Shown here: positions 1 through 60,195 of the stretch, piece after piece | Position numbering within the stretch: position 1 is the stretch's first letter | Layout: each line of letters begins with the position of its first letter | NCBI GenBank assembly: GCA_964653715.1 | Contig: CAZZGX010000027.1 | Coordinates: 1,836 to 65,835 of the forward strand | DNA length: 64,000 nt | From: an uncultured Candidatus Saccharibacteria bacterium | GTDB taxonomy: Bacteria > Patescibacteriota > Minisyncoccia > Ryanbacterales > GWA2-47-10b | Direction: 5' to 3' | The notes under the pieces: model-generated | What the model was told of the DNA's origin: nothing | The model's database searches: none | What the model saw: only the letters and a program-made list of their open reading frames with translations | Translations under genes and position numbers: made by a program

Positions 1-673
1 TGTTATGGGCCTCATCGAGAACATGTATACTGCTGTATGTGAATTGCTCGGTTATACTATATACAAGAAACCCTTCCCCGTTTTTTCATATGAAGAGGCG
101 CTCAAGCATTTTGCTGCTGACAAGTTTGATATGCGCCCCCCAAAAGAGCAAAAACATAACACACTTGCTTTCGCATGGGTTGTCGATTTTCCTCTTTTTG
201 AAAAAACGAATACTGGCGCATGGACTTATAGTCACAATCCATTTACAGGTCCTCGACCTTTGGATGAAGAAAAACTTCGCGACAAAAAAGATATAGGTAA
301 CATTATGTCGCTCCAATATGACCTCGTTTGTAATGGCCATGAAGTTGGCGGGGGAGGAATCCGTATTCGCAACGCTGAACTTCTGCAAAAAGTCTTTGAA
401 ATTATCGGACATACACCTGAAACAATCGAAAGGGATTTTGGACATATGCTGAAAGCGTTCCGCTACGGCGCGCCGCTCGAGGGGGGTATTGCACTAGGCA
501 TCGACCGAATAATCGCAATTCTAGCGGGCGAGACATCTGTTCGTGAAGTGCAGGCTTTCCCTATGACAGCCGGCGGAAGAACCTCCGCGATGGACGCACC
601 GTCAGAAGTTTCGAAAGAACAACTTGCCGAACTCGGGCTTCTGGTCAAAAAACAAAAAAAACATGACCTATAG
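1..673 (+). CDS. aspS: Aspartyl-tRNA synthetase, C-terminal part (gene starts upstream of window)
   Basis: Class II aaRS motif 3 region (GGGGIRIRN, GxGxDR-like GIDRIIAIL) and a bacterial GAD-insertion signature (FPLFEKTNTGAWTYSHNPFTGP) are present. ORF is open to the window edge. Confidence 0.85.
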   Translation, partial: VMGLIENMYTAVCELLGYTIYKKPFPVFSYEEALKHFAADKFDMRPPKEQKHNTLAFAWVVDFPLFEKTNTGAWTYSHNPFTGPRPLDEEKLRDKKDIGNIMSLQYDLVCNGHEVGGGGIRIRNAELLQKVFEIIGHTPETIERDFGHMLKAFRYGAPLEGGIALGIDRIIAILAGETSVREVQAFPMTAGGRTSAMDAPSEVSKEQLAELGLLVKKQKKHDL

Positions 674-5472: not shown

Positions 5473-6745
5473 AAGCCCCGTTCTTATCCTCGGGTTGGGT
5501 CTTCATGGCGGCGGAGTCGGAGCGGCGAGTTTTTTTGCGCGTCTTGGATACTCGGTAACCGTTACGGATCTTAAAGCAAAAAAGGAGCTCTTGATATCGT
5601 TAAAAAAATTGCGCGGTTTACCAATCAAATACATTCTCGGCAAACACCGGATGGAAGATATTAAACGAAGCAAACTTATCGTTAAAAATCCGGGTATCCC
5701 AGCGAGTTCCCCGTATGTAATAGCCGCTCAAAAATATCATATTCCTGTGACAAATGACGGAGAGCTTTTTATGGAACTCGCCCCTCGCAAAAAAGTAATA
5801 GGGATCACCGGTACAAAAGGCAAAACAACCACTGCGATGCTCGTAGGCCGTCTTCTCGGAAAAGAAGCGTTTGTCGTCGGAGTTCCGGGTGTTTCGTTTT
5901 TTGATTACTTTGACCGCGTACGCGAACCGAAATGGATTGTTGCTGAATTCTCAAGTTTTGATCTCGAATTTGTTAAAAAAAGTCCCCACATAGCCGTCTT
6001 CACGTCACTTTTCCCAGATCATCTTGACCGTTACCCCACCTTTAAAAAATACGCTTCTGCAAAAATGAACATCGTCCGCCATCAAACGAGCGGGGATGTA
6101 GCGATTTTTGCTTCATCTCCCAACACGCGTTCTCAAAGAGTAGAGTCTAAAAGTAAAGTAATTTGGGTAGACCTCGGGTCAAAAAAATACCGAGCTCCGT
6201 GGCCGACATCACACAATTCCGTGGCGCTTGCCGCCCGAGTAGGAGAAATATTAGGCTTTACTCAAAAAACAATCCAAGGGCGGTTTCATTCTTTCCGCCC
6301 GCCAAAAGGTAGGCTCGAAATAATATATCGCACAAAAAATCAGATATATATAAATGATACAACCTCTACGAATCCGGGGGCCGCGATGCATTCAATAAAA
6401 CTCATCGAGGAGCGTTTTGGCAAACAAAAACCTATTATTGTGATCACGGGAGGGGAGGATAAATCATTCCCAGCCGAAGAATTGAAAACATACGCGGAGT
6501 TTCTTCAAAATCATGCTATACGTGCTGTTTTTCTTAAAGGCTCAATGACTGAAAAATTGAAAAAGTACCTGCCCCATTTCGAGAAAACCTATACCTCCAT
6601 GCAAAATGCGGTCCGCGCGGCTCAATCATTCGAAGGAATTATCGTACTCCTTCCGGCAGCTGCTAGTTTTAATATGTTTCGCGACGAGTTTGATCGTGGA
6701 GAAAAATTTCTACGAGCTATACATCACAATGCGCGTGCAAAATAA
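5402..6745 (+). CDS. murD: UDP-N-acetylmuramoylalanine--D-glutamate ligase
   Basis: Rossmann start VLILGLGLHGGG, Mur ligase P-loop GITGTKGKTTT, and position between mraY and ftsW. Start is uncertain: ATG 5390 or 5402, or TTG 5444. All overlap the amidohydrolase 3' end. Confidence 0.8.
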   Translation: MDALHLKKEFLQERLRERFSVKARSPVLILGLGLHGGGVGAASFFARLGYSVTVTDLKAKKELLISLKKLRGLPIKYILGKHRMEDIKRSKLIVKNPGIPASSPYVIAAQKYHIPVTNDGELFMELAPRKKVIGITGTKGKTTTAMLVGRLLGKEAFVVGVPGVSFFDYFDRVREPKWIVAEFSSFDLEFVKKSPHIAVFTSLFPDHLDRYPTFKKYASAKMNIVRHQTSGDVAIFASSPNTRSQRVESKSKVIWVDLGSKKYRAPWPTSHNSVALAARVGEILGFTQKTIQGRFHSFRPPKGRLEIIYRTKNQIYINDTTSTNPGAAMHSIKLIEERFGKQKPIIVITGGEDKSFPAEELKTYAEFLQNHAIRAVFLKGSMTEKLKKYLPHFEKTYTSMQNAVRAAQSFEGIIVLLPAAASFNMFRDEFDRGEKFLRAIHHNARAK

Positions 6746-14273: not shown

Positions 14274-15947
14274 TTATATTTTACGTTTTATCTTGGCTCG
14301 TGGCAATGACGTATCTTTCGCGCGCTTATTTTTAATCGCGGCCTTGATAAATTCGCGAAAAAGTGGGTGTGGAACAAGCGGCCGTGATAAAAATTCGGGG
14401 TGAAATTGAACACCAAGAAAAAATGGGTGCTCTTTGATCTCTGCGATTTCGACTAATTTTTGCTGGGGATTGATGCCTGAGATGATAAGGCCCTTTTTTT
14501 CAAGTCGCCCAAGTAGTTTCGAGTTGACTTCATAGCGATGGCGATGGCGCTCTTTGATTTTTGGAAGGCTATACGCGCGCTCAGCGATTGTGCCTTTTAT
14601 AATCCTGCAATCATAGAGCCCAAGACGCATCGAGCCCCCGTAATGTTTTTGAGAAATAAGCGCTTCTTGCTCAGGAAGGATATCAATAACGGGATAAGGC
14701 GTTTTTTTGTCGATCTCGGTTGTATGCGCGTGGGCCATTCGGGCAACATTTCGCGCGAACTCAACCACCATAAGCTGCATCCCATAGCAAAGGCCAAAAT
14801 AGGGTATTTTTTCGTGCCGGCAAAATTCTATAACTTTAATTTTACCCTCAATCCCCCGTCCCCCGAAACCACCAGGAACTACAATGCCGTCATAAAGTTT
14901 TAGATCCTTGAGCGCGCGGGGATTTTTTTCATACTCTTCGGCATCGAGCCAGTGAAGCTCTGGTTCGCGCTTAAAAAACCATGTAGCATGCTTGAGCGCC
15001 TCTATAACGGAAATGTATGAGTCGGCAAGCGAAAAGGAGCCTGTCGAGAAGTATTTCCCGACGATGCCAATCTTTACGGTAGACTTTCCCGGCTTGCGGA
15101 TCACCGTTACCAAGCGGCGCCACTCTTTGAGGTCAGTCTTTTTTTTCTTGAGGCCTAACTTTTTGAGGACAAGGCCCCCGAGGTTATCTTTTTCAAAATT
15201 AAGCGGTACCTCATAGATTGAATCGATGTCGGGTGCTGAGATAATATCCTCTTCGTTGAGATTTGAGGCGACCGAAAGTTTGCGCTTTCGCGGAAGATCA
15301 AGTGGTTCGGAGGCGCGCGCTAAAATGATGTCAGGCTGGATTCCGGCAGCGTTGAGTGTCCGGACGGCGTATTGTGTGGGTTTGGTTTTCATCTCGCCAA
15401 TTTTGTCCGGAATCGGCAAGTAGCTGACCATGACAAAAAGAACGTCTTTTGGATGGCGGAGTTTCATCATGCGCGCCGCTTCCAGAAAAAGAAGATTTTG
15501 GTACTCCCCTACCGTGCCGCCGATTTCGATTAAAAGAATATCAGCGTGATCTTTTTTCTGCGCGCGCTCGATCCTAGAGATTATCTCTTCGGGGATGTGG
15601 GGTACCACCTCAACGCATTTTCCGTCGTATTCAAGACTGCGTTCTTTTTCAATCACCGACTGATACACCATCCCAGTCGTCATGTAATTGACACGAAAGA
15701 GCGACCGATTTAAAAAACGTTCGTAATTGCCGATATCCTGATCGCACTCGAGCCCGTCGCTCGTCACGAACACCTCTCCGTGCTCAGTAGGATTCATCGT
15801 TCCCGCGTCAACGTTAATATAGGGGTCAATTTTCATCGCCGAAACACGAAAACCGTAGGACTGAAGAATTTTTCCAAGCGATGAGGTGGCAATTCCCTTG
15901 CCAATCCCCGACATCACTCCACCCGTTACAAAAATAAACTTGTTCAT
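14274..15947 (-). CDS. pyrG: CTP synthase
   Basis: N-terminus MNKFIFVTGGVMSGIGKGI and a C-terminal glutamine amidotransferase domain (GLCYGMQ). Confidence 0.95.
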   Translation of the reverse strand: MNKFIFVTGGVMSGIGKGIATSSLGKILQSYGFRVSAMKIDPYINVDAGTMNPTEHGEVFVTSDGLECDQDIGNYERFLNRSLFRVNYMTTGMVYQSVIEKERSLEYDGKCVEVVPHIPEEIISRIERAQKKDHADILLIEIGGTVGEYQNLLFLEAARMMKLRHPKDVLFVMVSYLPIPDKIGEMKTKPTQYAVRTLNAAGIQPDIILARASEPLDLPRKRKLSVASNLNEEDIISAPDIDSIYEVPLNFEKDNLGGLVLKKLGLKKKKTDLKEWRRLVTVIRKPGKSTVKIGIVGKYFSTGSFSLADSYISVIEALKHATWFFKREPELHWLDAEEYEKNPRALKDLKLYDGIVVPGGFGGRGIEGKIKVIEFCRHEKIPYFGLCYGMQLMVVEFARNVARMAHAHTTEIDKKTPYPVIDILPEQEALISQKHYGGSMRLGLYDCRIIKGTIAERAYSLPKIKERHRHRYEVNSKLLGRLEKKGLIISGINPQQKLVEIAEIKEHPFFLGVQFHPEFLSRPLVPHPLFREFIKAAIKNKRAKDTSLPRAKIKRKI

Positions 15948-17652: not shown

Positions 17653-18561
17653 ATGGAAAAAGTTGCCTCGCGGCACGTGACATGGGTGGATGTCGAAAAT
17701 CCCACGGAAGCTGAAATCAAGATGCTTTCGCTCAAACATATGATCCATCCGCTTGCCGCCCGTGAAATGCAGATTACCACCTACCGTCCCAAACTAGAGC
17801 GCTATGAAGAGCATCTCTATCTTGTCCTTCACTTTCCCGTATTTGAACCAAAAGCAAGCTCGAGTCAAAGCCGCGAAATTGATTTTTTAATTTTTCCCTA
17901 CACACTTGTAACCGTCCACTACGAACCAATCCCGCAGCTCGATGATTATCAAAAACTTCTCGCCGAACATGAAGCAATTCGGGAACGGACGTTTGGCTCC
18001 TCAAGCGGCCACCTGCTCTACAACATCATCAGCCAGCTCTTCGCGGTTTCACGCAAAGATCTCGACTTCATAGAATCCAAAATCAAAAATATCGAGGAAC
18101 GCGTGTTTAATGGAGACGGGCGGGTGCTACGTGAAATTGCCCTCTTGCGCAGAGACATCCTCAATTTTCAGAAAGCGTTGAAACCGCAACAAACCGTACT
18201 CGATTCGCTTGAAGAGCACGGCAAACAGTTTTTTGGTCAAGACATGAAACCTTATTTCAGCGATATTAAGGGCGCCTACATACAGATCTGGAACTCGGTT
18301 GAAAATTTGAGGGAAACGCTGGACACGCTTTATGAAACCATTACTTCACTTATCGCCTCAAATACCAATGAAATTATTAAAACGCTCACCGTTTTTACTC
18401 TTGTCGTCATGCCAATCTCGCTGATTGCGTTTATTTTTTCTATGGATATTCCCGGCGTCCCGCTCAAAAATAACCCTAATGCTTTCTGGATTGTAACGAG
18501 CAGTATGATTGGGCTCTCATTGATCATCTATAACATTTTCAAACAAAAGAAATGGCTCTAG
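17653..18561 (+). CDS. corA: CorA family divalent cation transporter (GMN motif replaced by SMD)
   Basis: CorA-like cytoplasmic N-domain and two C-terminal TM helices. The signature position reads FIFSMDIP rather than YGMNF. An extended -10 (TGGTATGAT) sits about 11 nt upstream of the ATG, suggesting a near-leaderless transcript. Confidence 0.65.
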   Translation: MEKVASRHVTWVDVENPTEAEIKMLSLKHMIHPLAAREMQITTYRPKLERYEEHLYLVLHFPVFEPKASSSQSREIDFLIFPYTLVTVHYEPIPQLDDYQKLLAEHEAIRERTFGSSSGHLLYNIISQLFAVSRKDLDFIESKIKNIEERVFNGDGRVLREIALLRRDILNFQKALKPQQTVLDSLEEHGKQFFGQDMKPYFSDIKGAYIQIWNSVENLRETLDTLYETITSLIASNTNEIIKTLTVFTLVVMPISLIAFIFSMDIPGVPLKNNPNAFWIVTSSMIGLSLIIYNIFKQKKWL

Positions 18562-19922
18562 TGTTGTTCAACACTCTTTCAAGAAAGAAAGAGAAATTTA
18601 ATGTTCCCAAATTCCGTTCTGTCAAGCTCTATACCTGCGGGCCGACCGTATATCGTTCGCAACATATCGGAAATTATCGTACCTATATTTTTGAAGATAT
18701 TCTCAAACGGACCCTACTGCTCAACGGATACCGCGTACATCACATTACAAACGTCACTGATGTCGGGCACTTAACGTCTGATGATGACACGGGAAAGGAT
18801 AAAATCGAAAATGAAGCGCGCCGTATCCATAAAAATGCTTGGGACATTGCGAGACAATTCGAAAACGAATTTAAAAGCGACTCACGGGCGCTCAATATCC
18901 TCCCCCCTCAAAAATATGTCCGCGCCACCGATCACATCGTCGAACAGATTGCACTTATTAAAAAATTGGAGTCAAAAGGATATGTATACACAACAGGAGA
19001 CGGTTTATACTTTGATACTTCAAAAGTGAAAAATTATGGGGCACTCGCTGGGCGAGCTGCCGCGAGCACACGCGAGGGCTCTCGAGTAGAGATACGAAAA
19101 AAACGTCATGCGATGGATTTTGCGCTCTGGAAATTCTCTCCTGCTAGCGAGAAAAAACAAATGGAATGGTCCTCTCCGTGGGGCATCGGCTTTCCGGGGT
19201 GGCATATCGAGTGTTCCGCGATGAGCATGAAATATCTCGGCCCGACGCTCGATATCCACGCGGGAGGTACCGACCACATACAAATTCACCATCCCAATGA
19301 AATCGCGCAATCAGAAGCCGTAACTGGTAAAATATTTTCCCGTTTTTGGATGCACGGCGCGTTTCTTACGATCAAGGGAAGTAAAATGGCAAAATCCTCG
19401 CCCGAAACAAACCTGACGCTTGAGATGCTCCGGGAACACGCTTTTGATCCTCTTGATTTTCGATATCTCACGCTCGGAACACATTATCGTAAACCCCTAT
19501 CATTTAGCTGGGAAGCGCTGCGAGGGGCTCGTAATTCGCGGCTTAAACTCTTGGCTTCGTATAAAAATTTAAAAAAGCAAAAAGGCGCAAAAGACTCGAT
19601 ATTGAAAAAGGTCGTCCTCAAAGAACTCTCGGACGATTTGAATGCGCCAAAAGCACTCTCTTCTCTTTGGAAATACCACGAAAACATTTCGCAACACGCG
19701 GTTCTCTCTATAGACCATGCGTTTGGACTTGGTTTCAAAAAAGAATCAGAGAAAATCCGAAATCGAGTAATTCCTAATACAATAACAATCCTAGTTCAGG
19801 AACGAGAACGGTATCGCAAGGGAAAAAAATGGCAGAAGGCTGATCGCATCCGCCAAAAAATTGTAAAGGAGGGTTATACCATTGAGGATACCCCGTCCGG
19901 ACCGTTCGTACACAAGATATAA
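18552..19922 (+). CDS. cysS: Cysteinyl-tRNA synthetase
   Basis: YTCGPTVY...HIGN (HIGH-type) and KMAKS motifs, plus zinc-binding Cys residues. Confidence 0.9.
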   Translation: MALVLFNTLSRKKEKFNVPKFRSVKLYTCGPTVYRSQHIGNYRTYIFEDILKRTLLLNGYRVHHITNVTDVGHLTSDDDTGKDKIENEARRIHKNAWDIARQFENEFKSDSRALNILPPQKYVRATDHIVEQIALIKKLESKGYVYTTGDGLYFDTSKVKNYGALAGRAAASTREGSRVEIRKKRHAMDFALWKFSPASEKKQMEWSSPWGIGFPGWHIECSAMSMKYLGPTLDIHAGGTDHIQIHHPNEIAQSEAVTGKIFSRFWMHGAFLTIKGSKMAKSSPETNLTLEMLREHAFDPLDFRYLTLGTHYRKPLSFSWEALRGARNSRLKLLASYKNLKKQKGAKDSILKKVVLKELSDDLNAPKALSSLWKYHENISQHAVLSIDHAFGLGFKKESEKIRNRVIPNTITILVQERERYRKGKKWQKADRIRQKIVKEGYTIEDTPSGPFVHKI

Positions 19923-19980: not shown

Positions 19981-21318
19981 ATGCCCGATCCGCTAAAAAT
20001 TCCTCCTCATTCCAAAGAAGCAGAAATGGCCGTCTTGGGATCAGTGATGATCGACCGAAACGCGATTACGCGCGTGGTCGATATTTTGCTGCCGGATGAT
20101 TTTTATCACAATGAACACGGCATCATTTGGACGACTATGATGAATCTATTCGATAAAAGCGCTCCGCTTGATATTCTTGCTGTTCAAGGACATCTCACCG
20201 AGCGCGGACTTCTTGAACGCGCAGGCAACGCGAGCTATCTCGCAACCCTCGTCAATTCAGTCGCGAGCGCTGGAAGTATCACTCACTACGCTGAAATCGT
20301 GAAAAAAAAGCGGGTGTTGAGGGATCTTATTACATCCGCGCACCACATTGGCGATCTTGGTTATCAGGAAGGAGAAGATATTGAACTCTTGCTCGACGAA
20401 GCGGAACGAAAAATATTTTCAATTTCCCAGCATTCCCTTCGTCAACGCTTCGCGCCTGTTCGCGACGCGCTCACGGAAGCATGGGAACGAATCGACATGC
20501 TTCACAAAGGCAAAGGAACGCTCCGCGGTGTGCCGACCGGATTTGAAAAACTAGATAATATTTTATCGGGACTTCAAAAATCAGACCTCGTCGTGCTTGC
20601 CGCGCGTCCATCGCTCGGGAAAACCGCGTTGGCGCTTGATATCGTGCGCAACGCCGCCGTCAATCACAAAATTCCGGTTGCTATTTTTTCGCTTGAAATG
20701 TCAACCCAGCAACTCGTTGATCGTTTCATCGCGGCAGAAGCCCATGTGGATCTCTGGAAACTCCGCACGGGAAACCTCTCGGAAACCTCAAATGATTTCC
20801 AGAGAATCAACGACGCGCTTTCGCGCCTTGCCGAGGCCCCAATCTATATTGATGACGCAGCTACGAGCTCGGTTCTTCAGATGCGTGCGATGGCGCGACG
20901 GCTACAAGCTGAAGTCCCGCTCGGTCTTATTGTCGTCGATTATCTGCAGCTCATGCAGCCCCGACAGATTTCTGACAGTATGGTCCAGCAAATCACTGAG
21001 ATCTCGCGCTCGCTCAAGCAACTAGCACGCGAGCTTGATGTGCCCGTGCTTGCGCTTTCGCAGCTTTCGCGCGCGGTTGAGCAACGTCATCCTCCCATTC
21101 CAAGGCTGTCGGATCTTCGAGAATCCGGATCTATTGAGCAGGACGCTGACGTGGTCATGTTTATTTATCGGGAAGATAAAGTAAAACGAGATTCAAATCG
21201 TCCGAATATCGCGGAGATTTTAGTAGAAAAACACCGCAACGGGCCTACCGGACGAACAGAGCTCTATTTCAACGCCGAGAAAGTTAGTTTTTCCTCGCTT
21301 GATGAAACCTTTATATAA
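19981..21318 (+). CDS. dnaB: Replicative DNA helicase
   Basis: DnaB N-domain (KEAEMAVLGSVMID) and RecA-like P-loop (ARPSLGKTALALDI). Confidence 0.95.
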   Translation: MPDPLKIPPHSKEAEMAVLGSVMIDRNAITRVVDILLPDDFYHNEHGIIWTTMMNLFDKSAPLDILAVQGHLTERGLLERAGNASYLATLVNSVASAGSITHYAEIVKKKRVLRDLITSAHHIGDLGYQEGEDIELLLDEAERKIFSISQHSLRQRFAPVRDALTEAWERIDMLHKGKGTLRGVPTGFEKLDNILSGLQKSDLVVLAARPSLGKTALALDIVRNAAVNHKIPVAIFSLEMSTQQLVDRFIAAEAHVDLWKLRTGNLSETSNDFQRINDALSRLAEAPIYIDDAATSSVLQMRAMARRLQAEVPLGLIVVDYLQLMQPRQISDSMVQQITEISRSLKQLARELDVPVLALSQLSRAVEQRHPPIPRLSDLRESGSIEQDADVVMFIYREDKVKRDSNRPNIAEILVEKHRNGPTGRTELYFNAEKVSFSSLDETFI

Positions 21319-21319
21319 C

Positions 21320-21937
21320 ATGCACCCCGATCCAATACAAAAAATCATAGAATACTTCATGCGGCTCCCGGGCATTGGCCCGCGCCAAGCGTCTCGCTTT
21401 GCCTATACGTTGCTCGATGAGGATAAAAGGACAATCGAGGGCTTTGGAAACGCGCTTAAGGATCTTGAAAAACACGTCGGTCGCTGTAGCGAGTGTTTCC
21501 GAAGTATTACGAAAAAAAATGGCGAAGAAATATGCGCCGCGTGTAGTGTCGAATCGCTCACCGCCATTTTAGTGGTCGAAAAAGATCAGGATCTCGAAAC
21601 AATTGCCAAGAGCGGCATTTGGGAGGGCGCGTATCATGTACTTGGCGGCACTATCTCGCTTCTTAACGAAAAAACACGTGTTACCGAACGAATTCGAACT
21701 CTCTATGAACGCCTTGAAAGGCGACTTAAGAAAAAAAATTCCATAGAGATTGTACTCGCGACATCGGCAACGACAGAGGGTGATTCGACGGCACTCTACA
21801 TAGAGCGGGTGCTTGAGCCTTTCACGAAGGAGAAGAAAATAACCTTGTCGCGTCTCGGAAGAGGCATCTCCACGGGGACTGAGATGGAGTACGCTGACCC
21901 GCAAACCTTAAAAAATGCCTTTAAAAACAGAAAATAA
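21320..21937 (+). CDS. recR: Recombination protein RecR
   Basis: HhH (RLPGIGPRQASRFAY), C4 zinc finger (CSEC...C..C) and Toprim region. Start set at ATG 21320, immediately after the dnaB stop. Confidence 0.9.
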   Translation: MHPDPIQKIIEYFMRLPGIGPRQASRFAYTLLDEDKRTIEGFGNALKDLEKHVGRCSECFRSITKKNGEEICAACSVESLTAILVVEKDQDLETIAKSGIWEGAYHVLGGTISLLNEKTRVTERIRTLYERLERRLKKKNSIEIVLATSATTEGDSTALYIERVLEPFTKEKKITLSRLGRGISTGTEMEYADPQTLKNAFKNRK

Positions 21938-21944
21938 AAACATC

Positions 21945-21975
21945 TTTACATTCTTTTTTTACGGTGTAGAAATAA
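21945..21975 (+). promoter_or_regulatory. Putative sigma70 promoter (TTTACA - 16 nt - TAGAAAT) for the orphan toxin gene
   Basis: Hexamer spacing read directly from the sequence. It is followed by a GGAGGGAGGA SD. Confidence 0.4.
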
Positions 21976-21994
21976 ATAAGACGTGGAGGGAGGA

Positions 21995-22270
21995 ATGACA
22001 AAGCTCGACATTACGTTGAGTGCAGACAAAGAACTCCAATCCATATGCTGTAAAAGACAAGTAGATCAAGTGAGTCGTACGATCCTTGATATCGCGAGTG
22101 ACCCATTTATGCGTGAGACACGGGATCTCGAAAATAATCCGGGAGTGCGGTATATCGCGGTTGAGAACTTTTATATATTATATTATGTAGCCGAATCTGC
22201 GGGAGAGGACAAGCCCCGCCTAGTCAGTATTATGGGAGTTCTCAACGGCCCCTATCATCCACTTCACTAA
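21995..22270 (+). CDS. RelE/ParE-family toxin-like protein (orphan, no cognate antitoxin ORF adjacent)
   Basis: A 91-aa protein with the ParE/RelE pattern ...NNPGVRYIAVENFYILYYVAE...RLVSIMGV. It has its own SD and promoter. Start corrected from 21983 to ATG 21995, because MEGG is the SD. Confidence 0.55.
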   Translation: MTKLDITLSADKELQSICCKRQVDQVSRTILDIASDPFMRETRDLENNPGVRYIAVENFYILYYVAESAGEDKPRLVSIMGVLNGPYHPLH

Positions 22271-22294
22271 AGACCGGACCACGGTCTTTTTTTT
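22271..22294 (+). terminator. Intrinsic terminator (AGACCG-GACCA-CGGTCT + T8)
   Basis: Hairpin plus U-run directly after the toxin stop codon. Confidence 0.7.
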
Positions 22295-22358
22295 CGACAA
22301 AAACCGTAATACGTGTTAGAGTCCTGGATAGAAAACCTACGACAGGAGGACAAACAGA

Positions 22359-22970
22359 ATGACCCGCACGCTTGTCGCCGCACTTGCTCTTTTCATCATC
22401 GCCACCAGTTCACATGCTCTTGTCCTTTGCACATCTTCGCGCGGTACCGAAACAATCCGTATTCGAAATGTATGCTCGAAAAACGAACTACAACTCGACC
22501 CCGTTGCTCTCGGGCTTCAAGGACCAAAAGGTGACCCGGGTATCAACCCGATACCCTGTGCTTCGCAAATTGGCAACGAAGTATACTTCGAAGAATGTAA
22601 CGTAAACATTCGAAACGGGAGTGGTGCTACGGATGGAGTACTGAATGGTTTAGGTAATTTGGTAATTGGCTACAACGAGGACCTAAATAATCATAGTGTT
22701 CGAACGGGTTCTCATAATATTGTTGTGGGGAGTAACCACTCATATTCGAGTTTTGGTGGACTGGTTTCTGGTGCCTGGAACACAGTCAGCGGTCCAGCAA
22801 GCTCAGTTATTGGTGGCTATCAAAATATCGCCAGTGGCTGCGCATCTTCTATCACCGGCGGAAATGGCAATTTAGCCCAAGGATGCTATTCATCTGTCAG
22901 TGGTGGGCATGAACGGTCTGTCTACGAAACTAGCAACTGGGCCGCTGGTAATCTCTTCGAACCAAATTAG
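22359..22970 (+). CDS. Secreted protein with collagen-like G-x-y triplets and YadA-head/tail-fibre-like beta-helical Ser/Gly repeats
   Basis: Signal peptide MTRTLVAALALFIIATSSHA, a GLQGPKGDPG triplet run, then periodic N.a.G..SS..GG..N.asG repeats. Strong SD ACAGGAGGA. Confidence 0.6.
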   Translation: MTRTLVAALALFIIATSSHALVLCTSSRGTETIRIRNVCSKNELQLDPVALGLQGPKGDPGINPIPCASQIGNEVYFEECNVNIRNGSGATDGVLNGLGNLVIGYNEDLNNHSVRTGSHNIVVGSNHSYSSFGGLVSGAWNTVSGPASSVIGGYQNIASGCASSITGGNGNLAQGCYSSVSGGHERSVYETSNWAAGNLFEPN

Positions 22971-23048
22971 TTACACAACTTCACGCCCCTCGCAAACCAG
23001 CGATGGGCTTTTTTTATTCAATTGATTAGTTTTTCTGTCTTAACAAAA

Positions 23049-23072
23049 TAAAAAAACCTCCCTGAGGGGAGG
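23049..23072 (-). terminator. Intrinsic terminator for the minus-strand paralog pair (CCTCCC-TGA-GGGAGG preceded by A7 on plus)
   Basis: Hairpin plus T-run when read on the minus strand, 30 nt past the 23100 stop. Confidence 0.55.
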
Positions 23073-23099
23073 TTCGTTCCGACTTTGTTTTCTTCTGTT

Positions 23100-23450
23100 T
23101 CATTGTTTTTCCGCAAAAGCGGCGCCAGATGTGATACCCAGTCCTTTTCGCAGGTAGCCAGCATCAATCCCAAGCGCGTCGCAAACATTTTCGAATGAGT
23201 ACGGCCACGTTCTATCAACGCTCTCGAACCACTGCCATGCCTCGTGCCAAATTGTACGCCTTTTGACGCTGGGGATACTCTTGTATTCTTGGTAGATCTT
23301 AATGGTACCTTCGAGCAGAGCTAACATAAGTTTTTTCTCGGGCCTGATGTTTACGCGGCTCGTTCGGCGAAAATCATCACACTGAGATGGAAGAAAGTCA
23401 TCCAAGGCGCTTAAGGTCCGCCGAACCCGAGTGCTACGAATATTACTCAT
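23100..23450 (-). CDS. Hypothetical protein, paralog A of a tandem pair (shared C-terminal motif FxNVCDxLGIDAxYLRxGL ... AAFAEK)
   Basis: 116 aa. Clear similarity to the adjacent ORF (LMLALLEGTIKIY / LMLAVLENGIKDY; YSFENVCDALGIDAGYLRKGL / FSFLNICDKLRINADYLRSGL). Confidence 0.55.
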   Translation of the reverse strand: MSNIRSTRVRRTLSALDDFLPSQCDDFRRTSRVNIRPEKKLMLALLEGTIKIYQEYKSIPSVKRRTIWHEAWQWFESVDRTWPYSFENVCDALGIDAGYLRKGLGITSGAAFAEKQ

Positions 23451-23892
23451 TGGCTTCTTCTTTTTCAGCTAAGAAAAAGGCGGATGGAAGCTTCGAAAAA
23501 ACATTGGTTCTGCCTCTATTTATTTTTTTCTTTAGAAGTCCGGAACGCAAATAGTCAGCGTTAATCCGCAATTTGTCGCATATATTCAGAAAAGAAAACA
23601 GCAATTCTGATTCATTAGAAAATATCCAACTTTCAGCTTTCTTTTCTAAACGACGACGACACCTGGAGTCCTGGTAATCATGAAGACCTTGAGCGTTCTT
23701 ACCCAAATAGTCCTTGATACCATTTTCTAGAACCGCAAGCATGAGCGCTTCTTCGCCAGTCCGGAATAGAGTCTTATTCATATCCGCAAGCTGACTAGGC
23801 AGTATGATCGCGGACTCGAACAAGCTATTGATTATTTCCTCTACAGCCTCATCGCGTAGCTCATAGGTATACCTCAATGCCGAACGATTCAT
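23443..23892 (-). CDS. Hypothetical protein, paralog B of the tandem pair
   Basis: 149 aa from ATG 23892, preceded by GGGAGGAGGGGG. The ORF-track N-terminus (to 24111) is antisense read-through of tRNA-Lys and was trimmed. Confidence 0.55.
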   Translation of the reverse strand: MNRSALRYTYELRDEAVEEIINSLFESAIILPSQLADMNKTLFRTGEEALMLAVLENGIKDYLGKNAQGLHDYQDSRCRRRLEKKAESWIFSNESELLFSFLNICDKLRINADYLRSGLLKKKINRGRTNVFSKLPSAFFLAEKEEANE

Positions 23893-23972
23893 ATCCCCCT
23901 CCTCCCAATGACGATGAACTTTCGAAAATACATTACCATAGGTATGTGAAGTTTGTCGAATTCCATCCCAAC

Positions 23973-24045
23973 TCCGCCCGGCAGGAATCGAACCTGCGAC
24001 CATCTCCTTAAAAGGGAGCTGCTCTACCGACTGAGCTACGGGCGG
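23973..24045 (-). tRNA. tRNA-Lys (anticodon UUU), CCA not encoded
   Basis: Hand-folded cloverleaf: D-arm TAGCTCAGTCGGTAGAGCA, anticodon loop CTTTTAA, variable loop TGGTC, T-arm GCAGGTTCGATTCCTGC (near-identical to E. coli tRNA-Lys), acceptor CCGCCCG/CGGGCGG, discriminator A. Confidence 0.85.
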
Positions 24046-24059
24046 AGTTGGGAAACAAT

Positions 24060-24512
24060 TTATCGTGAGCGCGATATCAGAAAAAGGCCTATGAGGGGCA
24101 TGACCATCCAAAAAAGAAACGCGTTGTTGCCGCTAAAAAAGGCTAATGTGAGCGGCGAGAACTTTACTATACCACGGAATGAAAGTAAGTTCAATGTACC
24201 TGCCATAAAAAGTCCGATCGCGAGAAAACTCGCGATAAACGATTGCCACCATTTGTATGAGGCGCGCTCGGCACGCAATATCACGCGATCAAAAAACAAA
24301 AAAAGGACAAGCATAAGCCCAGCGTAGAAAGAAAGGTTACGGTATATATGGTAGTCAATCTTATATTCGTCAAAAAGCTTGAAGAACAGCGGACTTAAAA
24401 AGAGGGAAAGATATGTGGCAAGCATAAAAGAAAGAAGTTTTGTCTTGCCGTTTCCCATCATTCCGCCGATAAGCCCCGCCAGCAAAAAAATAAAACGAGG
24501 AGCGCATCCCAC
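24060..24512 (-). CDS. Hypothetical polytopic membrane protein
   Basis: Four predicted TM segments and no recognisable motif. Start uncertain. Confidence 0.4.
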   Translation of the reverse strand: MGCAPRFIFLLAGLIGGMMGNGKTKLLSFMLATYLSLFLSPLFFKLFDEYKIDYHIYRNLSFYAGLMLVLFLFFDRVILRAERASYKWWQSFIASFLAIGLFMAGTLNLLSFRGIVKFSPLTLAFFSGNNAFLFWMVMPLIGLFLISRSR

Positions 24513-24559: not shown

Positions 24560-25612
24560 CTACAATCCTTCTCGTCCGAGCTCTTCGGCAAGCGTCTTAA
24601 GCCGAGGAGTCAATTTTTTTGGCATCTTGATTTTCACTTCGATCAAGAGATCTCCTCGAGATCCGTTTTCGCGGAGAACTCCCTTTCCACCCACTTTAAG
24701 AATCTCGCCGTCAACAACTCCTTGCGGAATTTTCAATTTGAGAGAGCCGTCAAGAGTCGAGATAACGTGAGAACCACCGAGCAACGCTTCCGAAAGAGGC
24801 GTATTGAGTTGCATGAGTAAATCATTGCGTGAACGTTTGAACACTGGGTGGGCTAAGACTCGGACTTTGACATACAAGTCCCCAGCCTCCCCATTTCGTT
24901 GCGCCTCACCTTTATGCGGAATTCGCACGACCTCACCGTTTTCAATACCGGGAGGAATCATAATTCGAATTTCTTCACCGCGCGCGACTACTCCCTCACT
25001 ATGACACGAAGCACACTTTTTTTCCGGGATTTTCCCTTCACCATGGCACGTTTGGCATTCAATGACTTGCGTAAAATTTCCAAAAAACGAGCGCCGCGTG
25101 TCGCGAATAGTCCCAGCGCCGTGGCATTTGCTACACGTGGTCTCGCTTGATTCTTTCGCGCGTCCGGATCCTTTGCACGTTTCGCATAAAACGCGCTTTC
25201 GTATAAGCACGCGCCGCTCGGCTCCAAATACCGATTCGGCAAATGGAATATCGATATCAATCGAAATATCACGCCCACGCCTTTTTGTACTTGTCCCTCC
25301 CCCAGCGCCGCCGAAAAAAGACTCAAAAATGTCTCCCATATCAACATCTTCAAATCCGCGAAAAGACCCAAAATCCCAGCCACTAGGCGCTCCTCCGGGA
25401 CTACCATCAGCAACGCGCCCAAATTGATCATACTGCGCGCGTTTTTGATCATTAGATAGTACCTGGTAGGCTTCATTGACCTCTTTGAATTTTTTTTCAT
25501 CCCCTCCAGTTTTATCGGGATGAAACTGGTGCGCCAACTTGCGGTAGGCCTTTTTAATCTCCTCCTTGGAGGCACTTCGCACCACGCCTAGAATTTCATA
25601 ATAGTTTTTCAT
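24560..25612 (-). CDS. dnaJ: Molecular chaperone DnaJ
   Basis: J-domain (YYEILGV...HPD), G/F region and four CxxCxGxG zinc-finger repeats. Confidence 0.95.
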
Positions 25613-26553
25613 GTAAGAGAGTGGGTTCCGAGCTCAACAGTTATTGTTCTCAATTCTACAACTTTATACCGAAGAAGCAATTGGAGAATAAGAAATGCGC
25701 AAAAAACGACAAGCCAGTTTATGAAAAACGCGATGAAACGGAGCAGTACGAAAAGACCTACAGCAAAGGCAACAGGAAAAAGATTCTTATACGAAACCAG
25801 TTGATTTTCAATCATACGAATGCCAATTTGATAAAAAATATAAGAAACGGAATCGTTTGATTGAATGGCAACACCAGTTTTTTTACCAAGACTTGCCACT
25901 CCCTGTTCGATAAGAAGCGACCGCTCCACCGGGCTAAAAGATTCCGGACTTTTTTTGAGATCGGCTGCCGCTACGCGCACAATATATTCTGCAAGCGAAA
26001 TATCTTTTTGAAACCCCGGCATAATCTTTGTAATAGCAGGCTCTCCCCACCCAATCAAACGGATAAAAAGACTCTCCGGCACAATTTTTTTGAAATCCGG
26101 TGATGTGTTGGGGACTGTCACATACGAAGCCATGGCTACAAGAACCGCCAAAAACGTCGTGGTAAGCGGTATAGCCTTACGAAGTGGTCTTGTGATTCCT
26201 GCCTTGATAACCAGTTGCATTTCTCTCCGCGCCCGGAAATAACCGACGACACCAAAGAAAAAAAGAAGAAGAGAGGCCACGAGTAACGAGAAATCTTGGT
26301 ACCAAAAAAATACCGTAAACGAAGAAATTGCCCACGCGATTACAAAAACCCACGAGCGCTCAATGAGAAGAATCGCAAGCGCTAAAACCGTCAACTGGAG
26401 CAATACGGCAATCACGCTACTCCAGAAAACCGCCGTGAACTGCCACTCTGGAAGTAGGAAATAGACTGAAAGTGAAAGCCAAAAAAGTAACGAGGTAGGG
26501 ATGATAAAAAAGACAAGAACGAGTTCCTTATTTTCCGGGCTCATTCGTTTCAT
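25609..26553 (-). CDS. Hypothetical membrane protein encoded between dnaK and dnaJ
   Basis: Several TM helices and no recognisable motif. It overlaps both neighbours, so it is co-transcribed with the heat-shock operon. Confidence 0.5.
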
Positions 26554-28414
26554 TATCGCCCTTTACGTCCTCGTGCTCAACTTCGCGAGGCTGTGTATTC
26601 TCTGGAGCCGCTTGTTTTTGGTACAAGATTTCCCCGATTTTCTGGCTGGCAGCAGCAAAAGCCTGTGTTTTCTGTTTAATAGTCTCAACCAAGTCCCCTT
26701 TCAATGCTTCGGTGAGCTCCTCTTTTTTCTTTTGGATATCGTCAGCCACGTCTTTGGGAATTTTATCACCAGCTTCACGAAGACCTTTTTCAGCCGTATA
26801 GATTAGGGTATCGGCGATATTTTTGCTCTCGGCAAGCTCTTTTTTCTTTTGGTCCTCCGCAGCATACGCCGTAGCATCTTGTTTCATCCGCTCAATCTCG
26901 TCTTTACTCAAACCACTGGAGGCTTCGATCCGAACTGACTGTTCCTTGCTCGTTGCTTTATCTTTTGCTTTTACTGAGAGAATGCCGTTGACATCAATGT
27001 CAAACGTTACCTCAATTTGCGGCGTACCGCGAGATGCCGGCGGAATACCATCGAGCATAAAACGGCCCAACGATTTATTGTGTTCCGCCATCTCTCGCTC
27101 TCCCTGTAAAATATGAATTTCAACGGAAGTTTGCTGATCGGCTGCCGTCGAGAAAGTTTGCGTTTTTGCCGTGGGAATGGTCGTATTTTTTTCGATAAGT
27201 CGCGTAAAAACCCCTCCCATCGTCTCGAGTCCGAGTGAGAGAGGCGTTACGTCGAGAAGAAGGATATCTTTTACGTCTCCCTGCAATATCCCCGCTTGCA
27301 CCGCAGCTCCGAGTGCCACAACTTCATCGGGGTTGATGGAACGATTTGGGTCTTTGCCAAAAATATTTTTAACAGCCTCGACGATTGCGGGCATCCGCGT
27401 CTGGCCTCCTACAAGAATTACTTCGTTGATATTGGTAAGCGCAAATCCCGCGTCTTTGACGACTTGTTTTGTAATCTCAATCGATTTCTCAACATAGGGT
27501 CCCACGAGCTCTTCAAGTTTCGCGCGAGTTAACTTCATCAAAAGATGCTGCGGACCTGACGCGTCTGAGGTAATAAATGGAATATTGATCTCATGTTCAA
27601 CTGTGCTTGAAAGCTCATGCTTCGCCTTTTCGGCAGATTCCTTGAGGCGCTGAAGCGCCATCGTGTCTCTAGAGACATCAACCCCACTCTGTTTTTTAAA
27701 TTCCGCAACGATCCATTCGATGATTTTCTGGTCAAAATCGTCTCCGCCCAAATGCGTATCGCCTCCAGTCGCCCTCACTTCAATCGTATCCTCGGCAATT
27801 TCCAATACAGAAACATCAAAGGTACCCCCACCAAAATCATAGACGACAATTTTTTCATCTTTCTTTGTATTTAAACCGTACGCAAGCGCTGCAGCAGTCG
27901 GCTCGTTTAAAATTCGACGCACGGTAAACCCTGCGATCTCGCCGGCATCTTTCGTCGCTTTTCGTTGAGAATCATCGAAATACGCGGGAACAGTAATAAT
28001 AGCTTCCTTTATTGGTTCTCCGAGCTTTTCTTCCGCATCAGCTTTTAGCTTTTGGAGAATCATGGCCGAGATCTCCTCGGGCCGTTTCCAGCCGTCGCCC
28101 AAATGAACCTCAACGCCCCCATTGGAAGATGAGCGAATATCATACGGAAGTAATGTTTTGTCCCGCGTTATCACGGCATCACTGAATTTCCGTCCGATAA
28201 GCCGTTTTGCGGAAAAAACAGTTCCCTTGGGATTGGTAACGGCCTGACGCTTTGCCAAAAGTCCTACCAAGCGTTCCCCGATTTTTGAGATAGCCACAAT
28301 CGAAGGCATTGTCCGATTGCCTTCTTTGTTTTCAATAATGCGCGGCGTTCCTCCTTCAACAATAGCCATTGCTGAGTTTGTTGTTCCTAAGTCTATTCCT
28401 AATATTTTTGCCAT
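26528..28414 (-). CDS. dnaK: Molecular chaperone DnaK (Hsp70)
   Basis: N-terminus [22 protein letters not shown], Hsp70 signatures ([10 protein letters not shown]), and a C-terminal lid. Confidence 0.97.
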
Positions 28415-47975: not shown

Positions 47976-49682
47976 TTACTTGATTTTCTCAAGGTATTTC
48001 GCAGCCGCCCAGCCTTCTTTGCCTTCGCTGATCTTAATTTTGAACCAGCCGTTTGACTCGTCCACAAGCATATATTTCTCGCCTGGGTTGACCTTTTGAA
48101 TCAAAGTCCCAGAAACCGATGGTGTCTCGCGCACATTGAGCCAGCCCGTTTCAGTGCTTTTTACAAGAACGTAGGTCCCAGATTGGATCGACTCGTTGTT
48201 ACTAAGAGTAACTTTTCCAACGAGATTCATTACCTTCGGGTCATCTGTTTTCTCAAGAGTCGTGATTTCAATGCTTTCAAGTTGATATTGGATGTGTCGC
48301 GTATTAAGATTTTCTACCATAACCGTGAACAACTGCTTGGCATCGGCATCGGGATAGGCCACCCACACATACGCCTCTTTTGAAGAACTAATCGGCGCAG
48401 GCGCAAGTTTTTCCCCGCTTCGCAATTCTTTTTCCGCCTCAGAAAGAGAAAAAATAATCGCCTCGCTTTCCGAAACGGATTTTTGAGACGTAATTTCAAT
48501 ACTGCGGCCGTGTAAATTTTGATCGGTATAACTTGCGGTTTTAAACGCCAGTGGAATTTTTATATTCAGAATTTCTTTCTTTGAAAATTGCGCGGCTGGT
48601 TGCGACACGATGGTTGCTTGGGGGAGAGGAAAAGTCGGCATTTTTTTTGTGTTCCATCTCAATCCTACTAATAAAAGAAAAACGAGAACACCCATAGCCA
48701 TAACAATATTTTTTCTTGAAAAGTAATTATTCGTGTTTTTTCTCGCGTCGTTCCCAGAAAGGGCGAGGCGCGGCGAATTCATATCCCAAAGGGCCAACGC
48801 CGCTCCGACTGCTTTCATGCACCGCGTTCCACTCGAATAAATACTTACTCCGATCTCGGCAGGAATCGAAAGATTTGTTTCAAAAAAAGACGCTGACCCA
48901 CCGAGACGCGCCAACTCCCCGCCGAGTACAATTTTTTTAATATCATGCCCTGTGGTTTTTTTAAAATAGGAAACGCCGCGAGCAATTTCAGCGGCTATCG
49001 GTTCAAGCGCCTTGATCACGGTGAAAAAGTTTTTGTCGTTTTTACCGCTTAAATTTTCCTTCTCGAGATCAACCTCGCCAATGCCCGGCAGTGCGTATGA
49101 CGAATGAAAAACACCTCGATCAAAAAAAGAAACAAAAACTGCCGTTTTGCCAAGCTCAACGAGCGCCAATGCCAAATCTTCTTTTTGATTGGCAAGACCT
49201 CGGAAGAGTGCCGCGGGCTCTGGATCAAAAAACGCGATTTCAATCCTCAATTTTTGGAAAAATGCCTCCCATTCATTGAGCCACTCCCTGCTTGAAGCGA
49301 TAATGCTGAGACTTGAGCGCGAAAAGACAAGGTCTCTCCGGTCGAGCGGGATATTTTTTTCCGCTTCTTTTCGAAGCGTATCCGTCAAATCTTCACTCTC
49401 TTTTGAAACAAAAAAATGCGAATAGACAAGGTTTTCGGGAAGCGCAAACGTAGCTTTTCTTACCAAAATCGGCCTTGGTTCCGCTTCAAGAAGCGTTTTT
49501 TTGAGAGCGTCAAAAAGCTTTTGTTCGTTCTTGATTCTCCCCTCCTCAACCACGCCCGGCTCGAGCGTCTTTCTGCCAAGATTTTTTATTCTTGGCCTGT
49601 TAAATTGCGCAAGCTCCGCTATTTCTATTGAGTGGTCGTCGATGCTGATGCCAACCGAATGCGAAAAAAATATATTTTTCAT
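47976..49682 (-). CDS. pilM: Type IV pilus assembly protein PilM fused to PilN-like TM segment and C-terminal SH3b domain
   Basis: Actin-like PilM N-domain, mid TM (IVMAMGVLVFLLLVGL), and a C-terminal SH3b-like region (GWLNVRETPSVSGTLIQKVNPGEKYMLVDESNGWFKIK). Confidence 0.75.
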   Translation of the reverse strand: MKNIFFSHSVGISIDDHSIEIAELAQFNRPRIKNLGRKTLEPGVVEEGRIKNEQKLFDALKKTLLEAEPRPILVRKATFALPENLVYSHFFVSKESEDLTDTLRKEAEKNIPLDRRDLVFSRSSLSIIASSREWLNEWEAFFQKLRIEIAFFDPEPAALFRGLANQKEDLALALVELGKTAVFVSFFDRGVFHSSYALPGIGEVDLEKENLSGKNDKNFFTVIKALEPIAAEIARGVSYFKKTTGHDIKKIVLGGELARLGGSASFFETNLSIPAEIGVSIYSSGTRCMKAVGAALALWDMNSPRLALSGNDARKNTNNYFSRKNIVMAMGVLVFLLLVGLRWNTKKMPTFPLPQATIVSQPAAQFSKKEILNIKIPLAFKTASYTDQNLHGRSIEITSQKSVSESEAIIFSLSEAEKELRSGEKLAPAPISSSKEAYVWVAYPDADAKQLFTVMVENLNTRHIQYQLESIEITTLEKTDDPKVMNLVGKVTLSNNESIQSGTYVLVKSTETGWLNVRETPSVSGTLIQKVNPGEKYMLVDESNGWFKIKISEGKEGWAAAKYLEKIK

Positions 49683-53600: not shown

Positions 53601-53661
53601 TCGCCATAGCGATAAGAATCTCCATGAGCGATTGGCCTTTTTTATAATCAAGCCGCTTCAT
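50620..53661 (-). CDS. Giant (1013 aa) pseudopilin with about 14 Ycf48/BNR-like beta-propeller blade repeats
   Basis: N-terminus MKRLDYKKGQSLMEILIAMAIFLL (G-x4-E prepilin motif), followed by about 14 repeats of the form (S/T)xxDGW(A/I)VG..G.I..W.G..W. Confidence 0.8.
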   Translation of the reverse strand: MKRLDYKKGQSLMEILIAMAIFLLLSVSIASLAAGNFSALLKGGEETEAFHFAEEGMEAVRSVRDGAWNEIVPSPAVVSEVGNRWVLTSGLSQLINGKYTRTIQFDEVCRDPAGNIASCPPTGGNYKDIHSKYVRVRVSWGNSSYVDRNEYLTNWDSREWTQTDWSGGAGQTNWSNATQYNSDDGNIDNSTTPGQITLRALPNGVWVPAYANSFFDTTDSDFNAGSLSGTAVNGTGAGASVALAQAQQWAEHAASAVATTQNITDVDAIGPSDVWAVTDAGQVLRYNGTNWAVSANLGATVNLRGIDMRTTTDGWAVGSGGRTYRWNGSTWTLLSTGDSVTWNDVFVLAADNVWIVGANGSIKRWNGTAWSGAYAVPAGTKDLKSIYMVSSSDGWAVGLAGKILHWDELNWTGSKSIDTGNEAWNSVFMISASDGWVVGNNGIARHYNGTLWQTVSSFAGSTNLNDVFMLSPSSGWIAGSTGKLYRYSGSAWSEVTDLGGMSWNAVTMQDATHGWTLGSSGRIAYYDISYVSVGTLFSRIFDGGNPLTTWALMYWSQAVPVGTTMTVSTRTGNTPAPDASWSSFSAEQTNNINSSISSPARRYFQYRVTFTRGTVGSVSPQFQDITILYNPVTTQSINDLSIVTQDNIWAVTNNGDILHFDGFGWTLATNISTNDLNSISMVSANDGWIAASGGKIFHWDGTTAVSLQQGSAAWRSLFALAPDNAWVVGLGGNIRHFTGGGWQTGGAWQAVSSPTSSGLNSIYMISASDGWAVGNNGVVLHWNGSSWSSQTISTQAWNSVYMVSATDGWIVGGNGRIYRYICAPICAWQSVLSPTSATLNSVYMVSATDGWIVGAGGTILHWDGSTWQVYSSPVSTVLNAVKMVNQSVGWIVGAQGVILRRSAYVGSGFLTSSNFNMSDPSPVQIIEWDESIPVCVPACSVQFQLRTAPDVSGLPGVWTPWYGAGGAGTYFTARNASLVPTALNGNRWVEYKVFLSGDGASSPVLKEVRVNYK

Positions 53662-58094: not shown

Positions 58095-58342
58095 AGGACG
58101 GTATTAATCAGAAGTTCGTGGCACGACGGATTCGAGAAGCGATAGATATGCATGCCGAAGGCGATATCCAGCTATTTGCGCATTACGTCGGGCTCTCTGC
58201 TTCAGCAATGTACAACTATATCCATACCGAAAGAACCCCTTCAACCAGAGCGCTTTGGAAAATATCTAGATTCACGAACTTGCCAATGGAATGGTTTCTC
58301 ACAGAACCCAAACGGCAAATCACGAACCTTTCAGACAATTAA
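58076..58342 (+). CDS. XRE-family helix-turn-helix transcriptional regulator
   Basis: Cro/C1-type HTH (FAHYVGLSASAMYNYIHTERTPSTRALWKISRFTNLPMEWF). 88 aa. Confidence 0.65.
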   Translation: MEGSMTKDGINQKFVARRIREAIDMHAEGDIQLFAHYVGLSASAMYNYIHTERTPSTRALWKISRFTNLPMEWFLTEPKRQITNLSDN

Positions 58343-60063: not shown

Positions 60064-60150
60064 GCGGAGAGGGTGAGATTCGAACTCACGAGAGGATTGC
60101 TCCTCTGGCGGTTTTCAAGACCGCTGCCTTCAACCACTCAGCCACCTCTC
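60064..60150 (-). tRNA. tRNA-Ser (anticodon UGA), class II with long variable arm, CCA not encoded
   Basis: Hand fold: GGAGAGG-TG-GCT-GAGTGGTTGAA-GGC-A-GCGGT-CTTGAAA-ACCGC-CAGAGGAGCAATCCTCTC-GTGAG-TTCGAAT-CTCAC-CCTCTCC-G. Confidence 0.85.
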
Positions 60151-60195
60151 CGCTCTACTACGGAATCATTTCAAATTTTTAAGACCGCCGCCTTG

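Follow-up and report, generated by a model that had tools for sequence, protein, structure and literature searches.

It is common to find variable gene patches next to tRNA genes; the islets and islands described at such flanks sit 3' of a conserved tRNA gene, differ in content, carry toxin-antitoxin-type genes and fragment metagenome assemblies. Here, we analyzed a 64,000-nucleotide stretch of contig CAZZGX010000027.1 from an uncultured bacterium (this whole stretch is referred to as the window), in which four open reading frames (ORF1 to ORF4) occupy an interval of ~2 kb between recR and a tRNA-Lys(UUU) gene, on the 3' side of the tRNA. In all of the above respects this patch is like the described tRNA-flank elements; it is unlike them in that it spans only 2 kb, has neither an integrase nor a direct repeat of the tRNA end, has a native composition and was joined to its recR side by rearrangement rather than by insertion. 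We favor, with moderate confidence, the interpretation that these genes make up a lineage-specific accessory islet, located where synteny breaks off 3' of the tRNA-Lys gene that closes the dnaK block, and that two convergent halves probably came together to form it. An earlier note on this DNA had placed four genes at this position and had considered them consistent with a degraded prophage remnant at a tRNA integration site; all four genes are present where they were described, and the accessory nature of the patch and the variability of the flank were borne out while a prophage origin was not, there being no integrase, att site or phage hallmark gene.

The DnaK protein of the window identifies its host as a Patescibacterium, of the Parcubacteria/Paceibacteria type: it has 74–79% identity to DnaK of Patescibacteria metagenome-assembled genomes (MAGs), and the species representatives matched, all of which are Patescibacteria MAGs, reach 79% at most. 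For comparison with relatives, we used 80 Patescibacteria loci around dnaK (~1.3 Mb in total; individual loci carry L numbers below), which were found by means of DnaK because a RecR scan of the genome collection gave none. The five closest relatives, L003–L007, share the gene order of the window over ~14 kb (38.4 kb down to 24.06 kb), and this collinearity ends at the 3' end of the tRNA-Lys gene, with the L004 contig falling short of the tRNA. The conserved block reads hrcA-grpE-dnaK-mem314-dnaJ-mem150, in which mem314 and mem150 encode membrane proteins, and tRNA-Lys is its last element and the end point of synteny. Homologs of ORF1 to ORF4 were found in none of the 80 dnaK/recR loci by tblastn, phmmer or a family hidden Markov model. 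Thus, the four ORFs, which are real genes, are absent from these loci of the relatives and lie exactly where collinearity ends.

The 3' flank of tRNA-Lys is clearly variable among the relatives, being filled by other genes in L006, L007, L016, L018, L019, L031, L032 and others. Past the tRNA, L006 has a histidine phosphatase gene, a pilin-like gene and alr, and L007 has a hypothetical gene, alr, genes for membrane proteins and a kinase and then an aspS homolog of window positions 2–673; the flank holds DinB in L050 and, as judged by eye, sigma-factor and ABC-transporter-like genes in L031 and groES/groEL-like genes in L043. On this flank, L032 (16570–20625) has genes for a HIT-domain protein, for a SocA/Panacea antitoxin and its 122-aa partner, and for a PIN-domain protein; toxin-antitoxin cargo therefore recurs at the site within the phylum. 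The flank also coincides with the ends of assembled contigs: those of L003 and L005 terminate inside the tRNA-Lys gene, and those of L013 and L021 (both tRNA-Lys) and L033 (tRNA-Ala) terminate 49–186 bp past the tRNA that follows dnaJ. Because a contig end is expected, by a rough estimate, in a given 200-bp target in less than 1% of contigs, these ends are far above chance, and they suggest that populations or strains across the clade are heterogeneous at this position, or that a repeat lies there. Even in the tiny, streamlined genomes of Patescibacteria, the region 3' of a single conserved tRNA-Lys gene behaves as a hotspot of turnover and rearrangement and fragments metagenome assemblies.

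The other side of the patch points to rearrangement. More than 20 of the relatives that are further removed have recR-dnaB-cysS-corA upstream of hrcA-grpE-dnaK, in divergent orientation, and an adjacency of recR and tRNA-Lys was seen in no relative examined. In L034, L045 and L050, tRNA-Lys is followed by homologs of Peptidase_S41 and L9 genes (in L044 they come some genes later), and L050 additionally has a homolog of the window ORF at 14274–15947; in the window, the counterparts of these genes lie directly to the left of corA. Moreover, the left 23 kb of the window are inverted relative to L007 and L016. The adjacency of recR and tRNA-Lys is a derived one that was made by rearrangement, and because it is derived and the left 23 kb are inverted, the patch lies at a rearrangement junction. 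Our working hypothesis is that this rearrangement probably joined a recR-side half (ORF1 and ORF2) to a tRNA-side half (the ORF4-ORF3 operon), and that the genes would have arrived, or been retained, through ordinary turnover at a tRNA-flank hotspot together with rearrangement, long enough ago for their composition to have ameliorated.

In composition, the patch is native. Its GC content is 0.41–0.49 compared with a contig mean of 0.46, its GC content at third codon positions lies between −0.9 and +1.3 standard deviations of the contig mean, its tetranucleotide distance has z values of −0.4 to 1.3, and ORF3 and ORF4 equal the proteome mean in amino-acid composition. The search for mobile machinery was likewise negative, in agreement with the earlier note, which had seen no integrase or att repeat. 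Between recR and dnaJ there is no tyrosine or serine recombinase gene or pseudogene, as Pfam gave the RecR domains, a weak ParE_toxin match and LbR_Ice_bind only, and no further ORF of at least 40 aa near the tRNA fits an integrase. The 23-nt 3' end of tRNA-Lys, with up to 3 mismatches allowed, matched only itself in the window, and a repeat search was also empty. A 14-nt match to the T-arm at 48857–48870 was considered as an att site and rejected, because it falls within an ORF, is 5' of the tRNA (the wrong side) at a distance of 25 kb with dnaK and dnaJ in between, and is near chance expectation. Searches of PHROG with the patch ORFs returned noise only (E ≥0.004), and a search of the literature on prophages of the candidate phyla radiation and on tRNA integration gave nothing specific to the recR/tRNA-Lys locus. 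The idea of a terminus-region element was also rejected: the number of dif-like XerCD sites was 5, compared with an expectation of 7.3, and the patch has none of them.

ParE/RelE toxins, such as Mesorhizobium ParE (5ceg) and Agrobacterium YoeB/ParE (6n90), are the closest described counterparts of ORF1, which shares with them a length of ~90 aa, a predicted order of two helices followed by strands and the top Foldseek matches, and which differs from them in a Pfam score below the cut-off, weak Foldseek E-values, the lack of an adjoining antitoxin and the lack of any sequence homolog found. Specifically, ORF1 matched Pfam ParE_toxin (PF05016) over profile positions 3–72 of 89 with E = 0.014 and 16.4 bits, below the cut-off of 23. 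Among 5.8 billion proteins the only match was ORF1 itself, and there was no match to PDB sequences. A single-sequence AlphaFold2 (AF2) model of low confidence (pLDDT 55) has helices at residues 12–16 and 20–34 and strands at 43–45, 48–56, 59–66 and 75–84, i.e. an α-α-β-β-β-β topology. With this low-confidence model, Foldseek against 350,000 PDB chains placed ParE or YoeB/ParE structures at ranks 1–4 and RelE and HigB among the top 25, with E-values of 0.2–1.6 and TM-scores of ~0.4. Because these two weak but independent signals agree, ORF1 probably, though not certainly, adopts a diverged ParE/RelE fold.

An antitoxin gene was not found next to ORF1. No ORF of at least 40 aa that might encode an antitoxin lies on either side, ORFs of 20 aa or more between 21900 and 22400 are all short overlapping frames, and the 57-nt gap to recR and the downstream terminator leave no room for one. 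Ten other ORFs of the window (nine small ones and the Peptidase_S41 gene) likewise included no antitoxin-like gene, with a weak HTH_3 match only. The description of ORF1 in the earlier note as a ParE/RelE-like protein without antitoxin is a fair one given the sub-threshold Pfam and Foldseek signals, and ORF1 may be the relic of a toxin that was inactivated or is neutralized in trans.

The heads of trimeric autotransporter adhesins, such as UspA1 of Moraxella (3pr7) and others with the left-handed β-roll of the YadA type, are the closest described counterparts of ORF2. It starts with a hydrophobic N-terminal signal sequence of the Sec type, has six Cys residues and contains four successive G-x-y triplets (GLQGPKGDPGIN, residues 52–63), which are followed by approximately seven β-roll repeats with a clear periodicity of 15 residues. 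These Gly/Ser/Asn-rich repeats have the form SS.xGGxxNxAxGxx, as in the adhesin heads; they matched Pfam LbR_Ice_bind with E = 1.4e-5 and the UspA1 head with E = 8e-4 in three repeat-to-repeat alignments, and they are also like the ice-binding β-roll of grasses (PF21300). The short collagen-like segment is compatible with trimerization, as in trimeric adhesins, although the collagen profile PF01391 gave no match to ORF2. Unlike the trimeric autotransporter adhesins, ORF2 has no coiled-coil stalk and no YadA-type anchor (there is no Pfam domain for either, and the protein ends 20 residues past the last repeat) and is a 203-aa protein with a Sec signal in a Patescibacterium. More than 1,100 homologs were found in many bacteria; some of them have a Pfam Collagen domain (P0032 and P0090, with PF01391), and some bear JGI names of adhesins, including 'trimeric autotransporter adhesin'. 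Based on these sequence similarities, ORF2 is probably a secreted or surface, adhesin-like β-roll protein. The signal peptide, the G-x-y triplets and the repeats are thus as the earlier note had them; its comparison to tail fibers was rejected, since the repeats match the UspA1 head, tblastn against 50,697 GenBank phage genomes gave no match and the ORF2 homologs that were looked up have non-phage genes as neighbors.

ORF3 and ORF4 are paralogs, as had been proposed: they align over 93 aa with 39% identity (E = 9e-14). The window has no further copy of their family. Because the ATG of ORF3 overlaps the stop codon of ORF4 by 8 nt (ATGAGTAA), the two genes form one operon and are not independent units. 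The family belongs to no established class, as the earlier note had suggested: ORF3 and ORF4 had no match in Pfam, PHROGs or NCBIfam, 44 family members belonged to no family in Pfam, NCBIfam, PHROGs or PADLOC, there was no sequence match in the PDB and no clear fold match to a solved structure, and the source names of the members all read 'hypothetical protein'. A word-seeded search recovered just ten distant relatives. When a profile was run against 1.84 billion cluster representatives, 9,805 matched with E ≤1e-3, and 5,152 with E ≤1e-10, counted as clusters at 50% identity (ORF3 appears among them as P0134). The A2 family profile matched ORF3 with 2.6e-36 and ORF4 with 6.3e-32, both sequences being part of the profile. 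The family motifs read LPxQ ... PEKRLMLAVLEDA ... W ... FSFxNIC..LG.D..YLR.GL, and the invariant or near-invariant columns are present in both ORF3 and ORF4. The AF2 model of ORF4 is all-helical, with pLDDT above 95 at residues 80–120, and in the conserved FSFxNIC..LG.D..YLR.GL segment a turn connects a short helix to a long one. In this model the conserved C-terminal helices appear helix-turn-helix (HTH)-like, and ORF3 and ORF4 may act together as nucleic-acid-binding regulators.

The family of ORF3 and ORF4 is mainly chromosomal and occasionally phage-borne. At 88 loci with family members, the neighboring genes are lineage-specific (Rrf2, Suf, IHF, acyltransferase, YjbQ and UvrD) and mostly of a housekeeping or non-mobile kind, and no universal partner gene emerged across them; ORF calling for these neighborhoods was crude, and poor on high-GC contigs. 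Tblastn with ORF4 and a central family member against the 50,697 GenBank phage genomes gave no match. The family member in L087, one of six IMG/VR contigs that carry the family, lies amid HNH, methylase and DnaB genes. The best fold matches of the ORF4 model in BFVD were proteins of uncultured Caudovirales (A0A6J5LQ74, A0A6J5S871 and A0A6J5S2T1), with E-values of 3e-4 to 2e-3, 23–26% identity and lengths of 104–122 aa; these proteins are themselves unannotated, and the ORF3/4 family differs in being mostly chromosomal and in having no PHROG or GenBank phage match. Separately, we observed in L085, an IMG/VR contig that also encodes a sheath, a tube and a baseplate, a family member at 6001–6444 that is packed, with gaps of 3 nt and 7 nt, between the genes for a 735-aa tape-measure protein and a P2 gpU-like tail protein (by eye), an unexpected place for a putative regulator. 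A more ambitious idea, which we hold to be doubtful, is that ORF4 and ORF3 represent a new, widespread class of small helical HTH-like proteins that occur as a two-paralog module on chromosomes and phages, for instance as a heteromeric regulator or a partner-neutralizing pair, and that came to the tRNA-Lys hotspot as cargo by a route independent of an integrase. The family, which is the one feature of the patch that is out of the ordinary, is very large and is represented in no curated library; a Pfam-type model together with one biochemical characterization would allow thousands of genes to be annotated.

We considered three other explanations for the patch. That it is the residue of a prophage or integrative element at tRNA-Lys, which lost its integrase, att sites and structural genes and left a toxin, a fiber-like protein and regulatory genes, would accord with its place on the 3' side of the tRNA, with a variable flank at which relatives' assemblies break, with the orphan ParE-like ORF1, with the ORF3/4 family members in IMG/VR contigs (given the placements in L085 and L087), with the Caudovirales fold matches at E ~3e-4 and with the low codon adaptation index (CAI) of ORF4. 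We nevertheless regard this explanation as unlikely, since neither an integrase nor a repeat of the tRNA 3' end was found even with 3 mismatches, no ORF had a PHROG match above noise, ORF2 and the ORF3/4 family lack matches in phage genomes and have homologs mainly amid housekeeping or non-mobile genes, the base composition is native, and ORF1 and ORF2, as one half of the patch, adjoin recR, which was itself moved by rearrangement. Only slightly less strained is the view that the four are native, fast-evolving genes, i.e. old residents that diverged or were lost in the sampled relatives, with their position at the tRNA incidental to an inversion or translocation. Native composition and amino-acid usage, the ORFan status of ORF1 and the derived junction of recR and the tRNA would all follow from it, and many small non-conserved ORFs lie at block boundaries among relatives with 65–79% DnaK identity. 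It sits poorly with the fact that ORF2 and ORF3/4 belong to large families with best matches of 39–58% identity in unrelated, often high-GC soil or sediment bacteria, with the lack of any copy in the 80 Patescibacteria loci, a patchiness more typical of horizontal transfer, and with the concentration of variability exactly at the tRNA flank; it is, in our estimation, fairly unlikely.

The third explanation is a false join of two genomic regions in the assembly, either in the convergent intergenic region at ~22.97–23.10 kb or at the tRNA. A Logan contig of 1,079 bp that was found via ORF1 is 100% identical to the window over recR-ORF1-ORF2 (21365–22443) and extends no further, exact-protein look-ups of ORF2, ORF3, ORF4, RecR and P0001 gave no other contig, and relatives' assemblies break at tRNA-Lys. 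However, the two sides do not differ in composition, and a given relative is about as similar to one as to the other (in L007, 68% for aspS on the left and 74% for dnaK on the right), no repeat able to cause a misjoin was found at the ORF2/ORF3 junction, and ORFs and terminators are intact across it; an artifact is, therefore, very improbable. The accessory islet at a rearrangement junction, which we prefer, has points against it as well. The only part confirmed by a second assembly is recR-ORF1-ORF2, which leaves the junction of ORF2, ORF3 and the tRNA without such a match; even the closest relatives available are far removed (with a DnaK identity of no more than 79%), so that loss in them is inseparable from gain here; the CAI of ORF4, 0.61 compared with 0.73 ± 0.03, is the lowest on the contig and a mild foreign signal; six IMG/VR contigs carry the ORF3/4 family, and the model of ORF4 finds its fold matches among Caudovirales proteins; and the functions of all four proteins are ones that we infer. 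With no mobile machinery in the patch, the accessory islet changes little for biology at large.

The features of the interval and of its flanks are listed in Table 1. The earlier note had given each of the four genes its own promoter, Shine-Dalgarno sequence or terminator. This holds in part: all four have a strong Shine-Dalgarno sequence (GGAGGGAGG for ORF1 and GGAGGAGGGGG for ORF4), and hairpins follow ORF1, ORF2 and ORF3, while ORF4 and ORF3 share one transcription unit. ORF4 shares the strand of tRNA-Lys and begins 79 nt downstream of it. A terminator scan gave two clean terminators, at 22269–22289 after ORF1 and at 23075–23054 on the minus strand after ORF3, a rate not above that in shuffled sequence, and promoter-like sites in the patch are not more numerous than in shuffled sequence either. 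The hairpin after ORF2 is likely its terminator; the terminator of ORF3 converges on it, so that the two halves of the patch meet back-to-back.

Table 1 Coordinates of the recR/tRNA-Lys interval, its flanking genes and its expression signals in the window
Feature	Position	Strand	Remarks
corA	17653–18561	+	
cysS	18552–19922	+	
dnaB	19981–21318	+	
recR	21299–21937	+	Pfam Toprim_4, RecR_HhH, RecR_C
ORF1	21995–22270	+	91 aa in the ATG form called by NCBI; 95 aa from an alternative GTG start at 21983
Terminator-like hairpin and T-run 3' of ORF1	22269–22296	+	8-pair stem, 4 G-C pairs
Promoter-like site upstream of ORF2, TCGACA-17-TAGAGT with TG extension	22294–22322	+	Consensus match only
ORF2	22359–22970	+	203 aa
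Imperfect hairpin 3' of ORF2, GCCCCTCGC / GCGATGGGC, one mismatch, then TTTTTTTATT	22985–23018	+	Identified by eye; missed by simple scan
Terminator-like hairpin and T-run 3' of ORF3	23054–23075	−	9-pair stem, 5 G-C pairs
ORF3	23100–23450	−	116 aa, shorter paralog
ORF4	23443–23892	−	149 aa, longer paralog
tRNA-Lys(UUU)	23972–24046	−	ARAGORN; Rfam 71.8 bits
mem150	24060–24512	−	Conserved 150-aa membrane protein
dnaJ	24560–25612	−	
mem314	25609–26553	−	314-aa membrane protein
dnaK	26528–28414	−	

Rfam matched the tRNA alone over 21–25 kb of the window. The flanks of tRNA-Lys at 23959–23980 and 24039–24060 are complementary (22 nt, 86%), and they may lengthen the acceptor stem by ~7 bp into the leader and trailer as a precursor-processing helix. 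The product of mem150, which lies between dnaJ and tRNA-Lys, is a multi-pass protein without a Pfam family; its homologs have 43–54% identity in L003, L005, L006 and L007, the closest relatives that reach that far, weaker matches (27%) are present in L016, L018, L020 and L023, and a homolog is found in L038 as well. In many of L008–L074, a conserved ORF of ~103–113 aa is convergent to recR (for example L010 4434–4748, L038 2870–3184 and L045 2149–2484), and it has no counterpart in the window. The last 20 bases of the L004 contig (CAYIZO010000006.1) are AGATCGGAAGAGCACACGT, which we take to be Illumina adapter sequence, i.e. contamination of the contig end.

Elsewhere in the window, small ORFs of deviating GC content surround tRNA-Ser(UGA) (60064–60151) between 58000 and 60800, with values of 0.55 at 58978–59580, 0.37 at 59717–60001 and 0.54 at 60284–60754, and a weak HTH_3 ORF lies at 58076–58342; this region may be a second accessory patch beside a tRNA gene, and a compositionally more foreign-looking one. 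A 1,013-aa ORF at 50620–53661 on the minus strand falls in the region of largest tetranucleotide deviation (0.38 in the 2.1-kb segment from 51001, compared with a mean of 0.21). Nearly all genes between 24 and 58 kb are on the minus strand. The GC skew is positive over 1–12 kb and negative from 14 kb, and this change of sign at ~12–14 kb, which is ~10 kb away from the patch rather than at it, may be related to replication.

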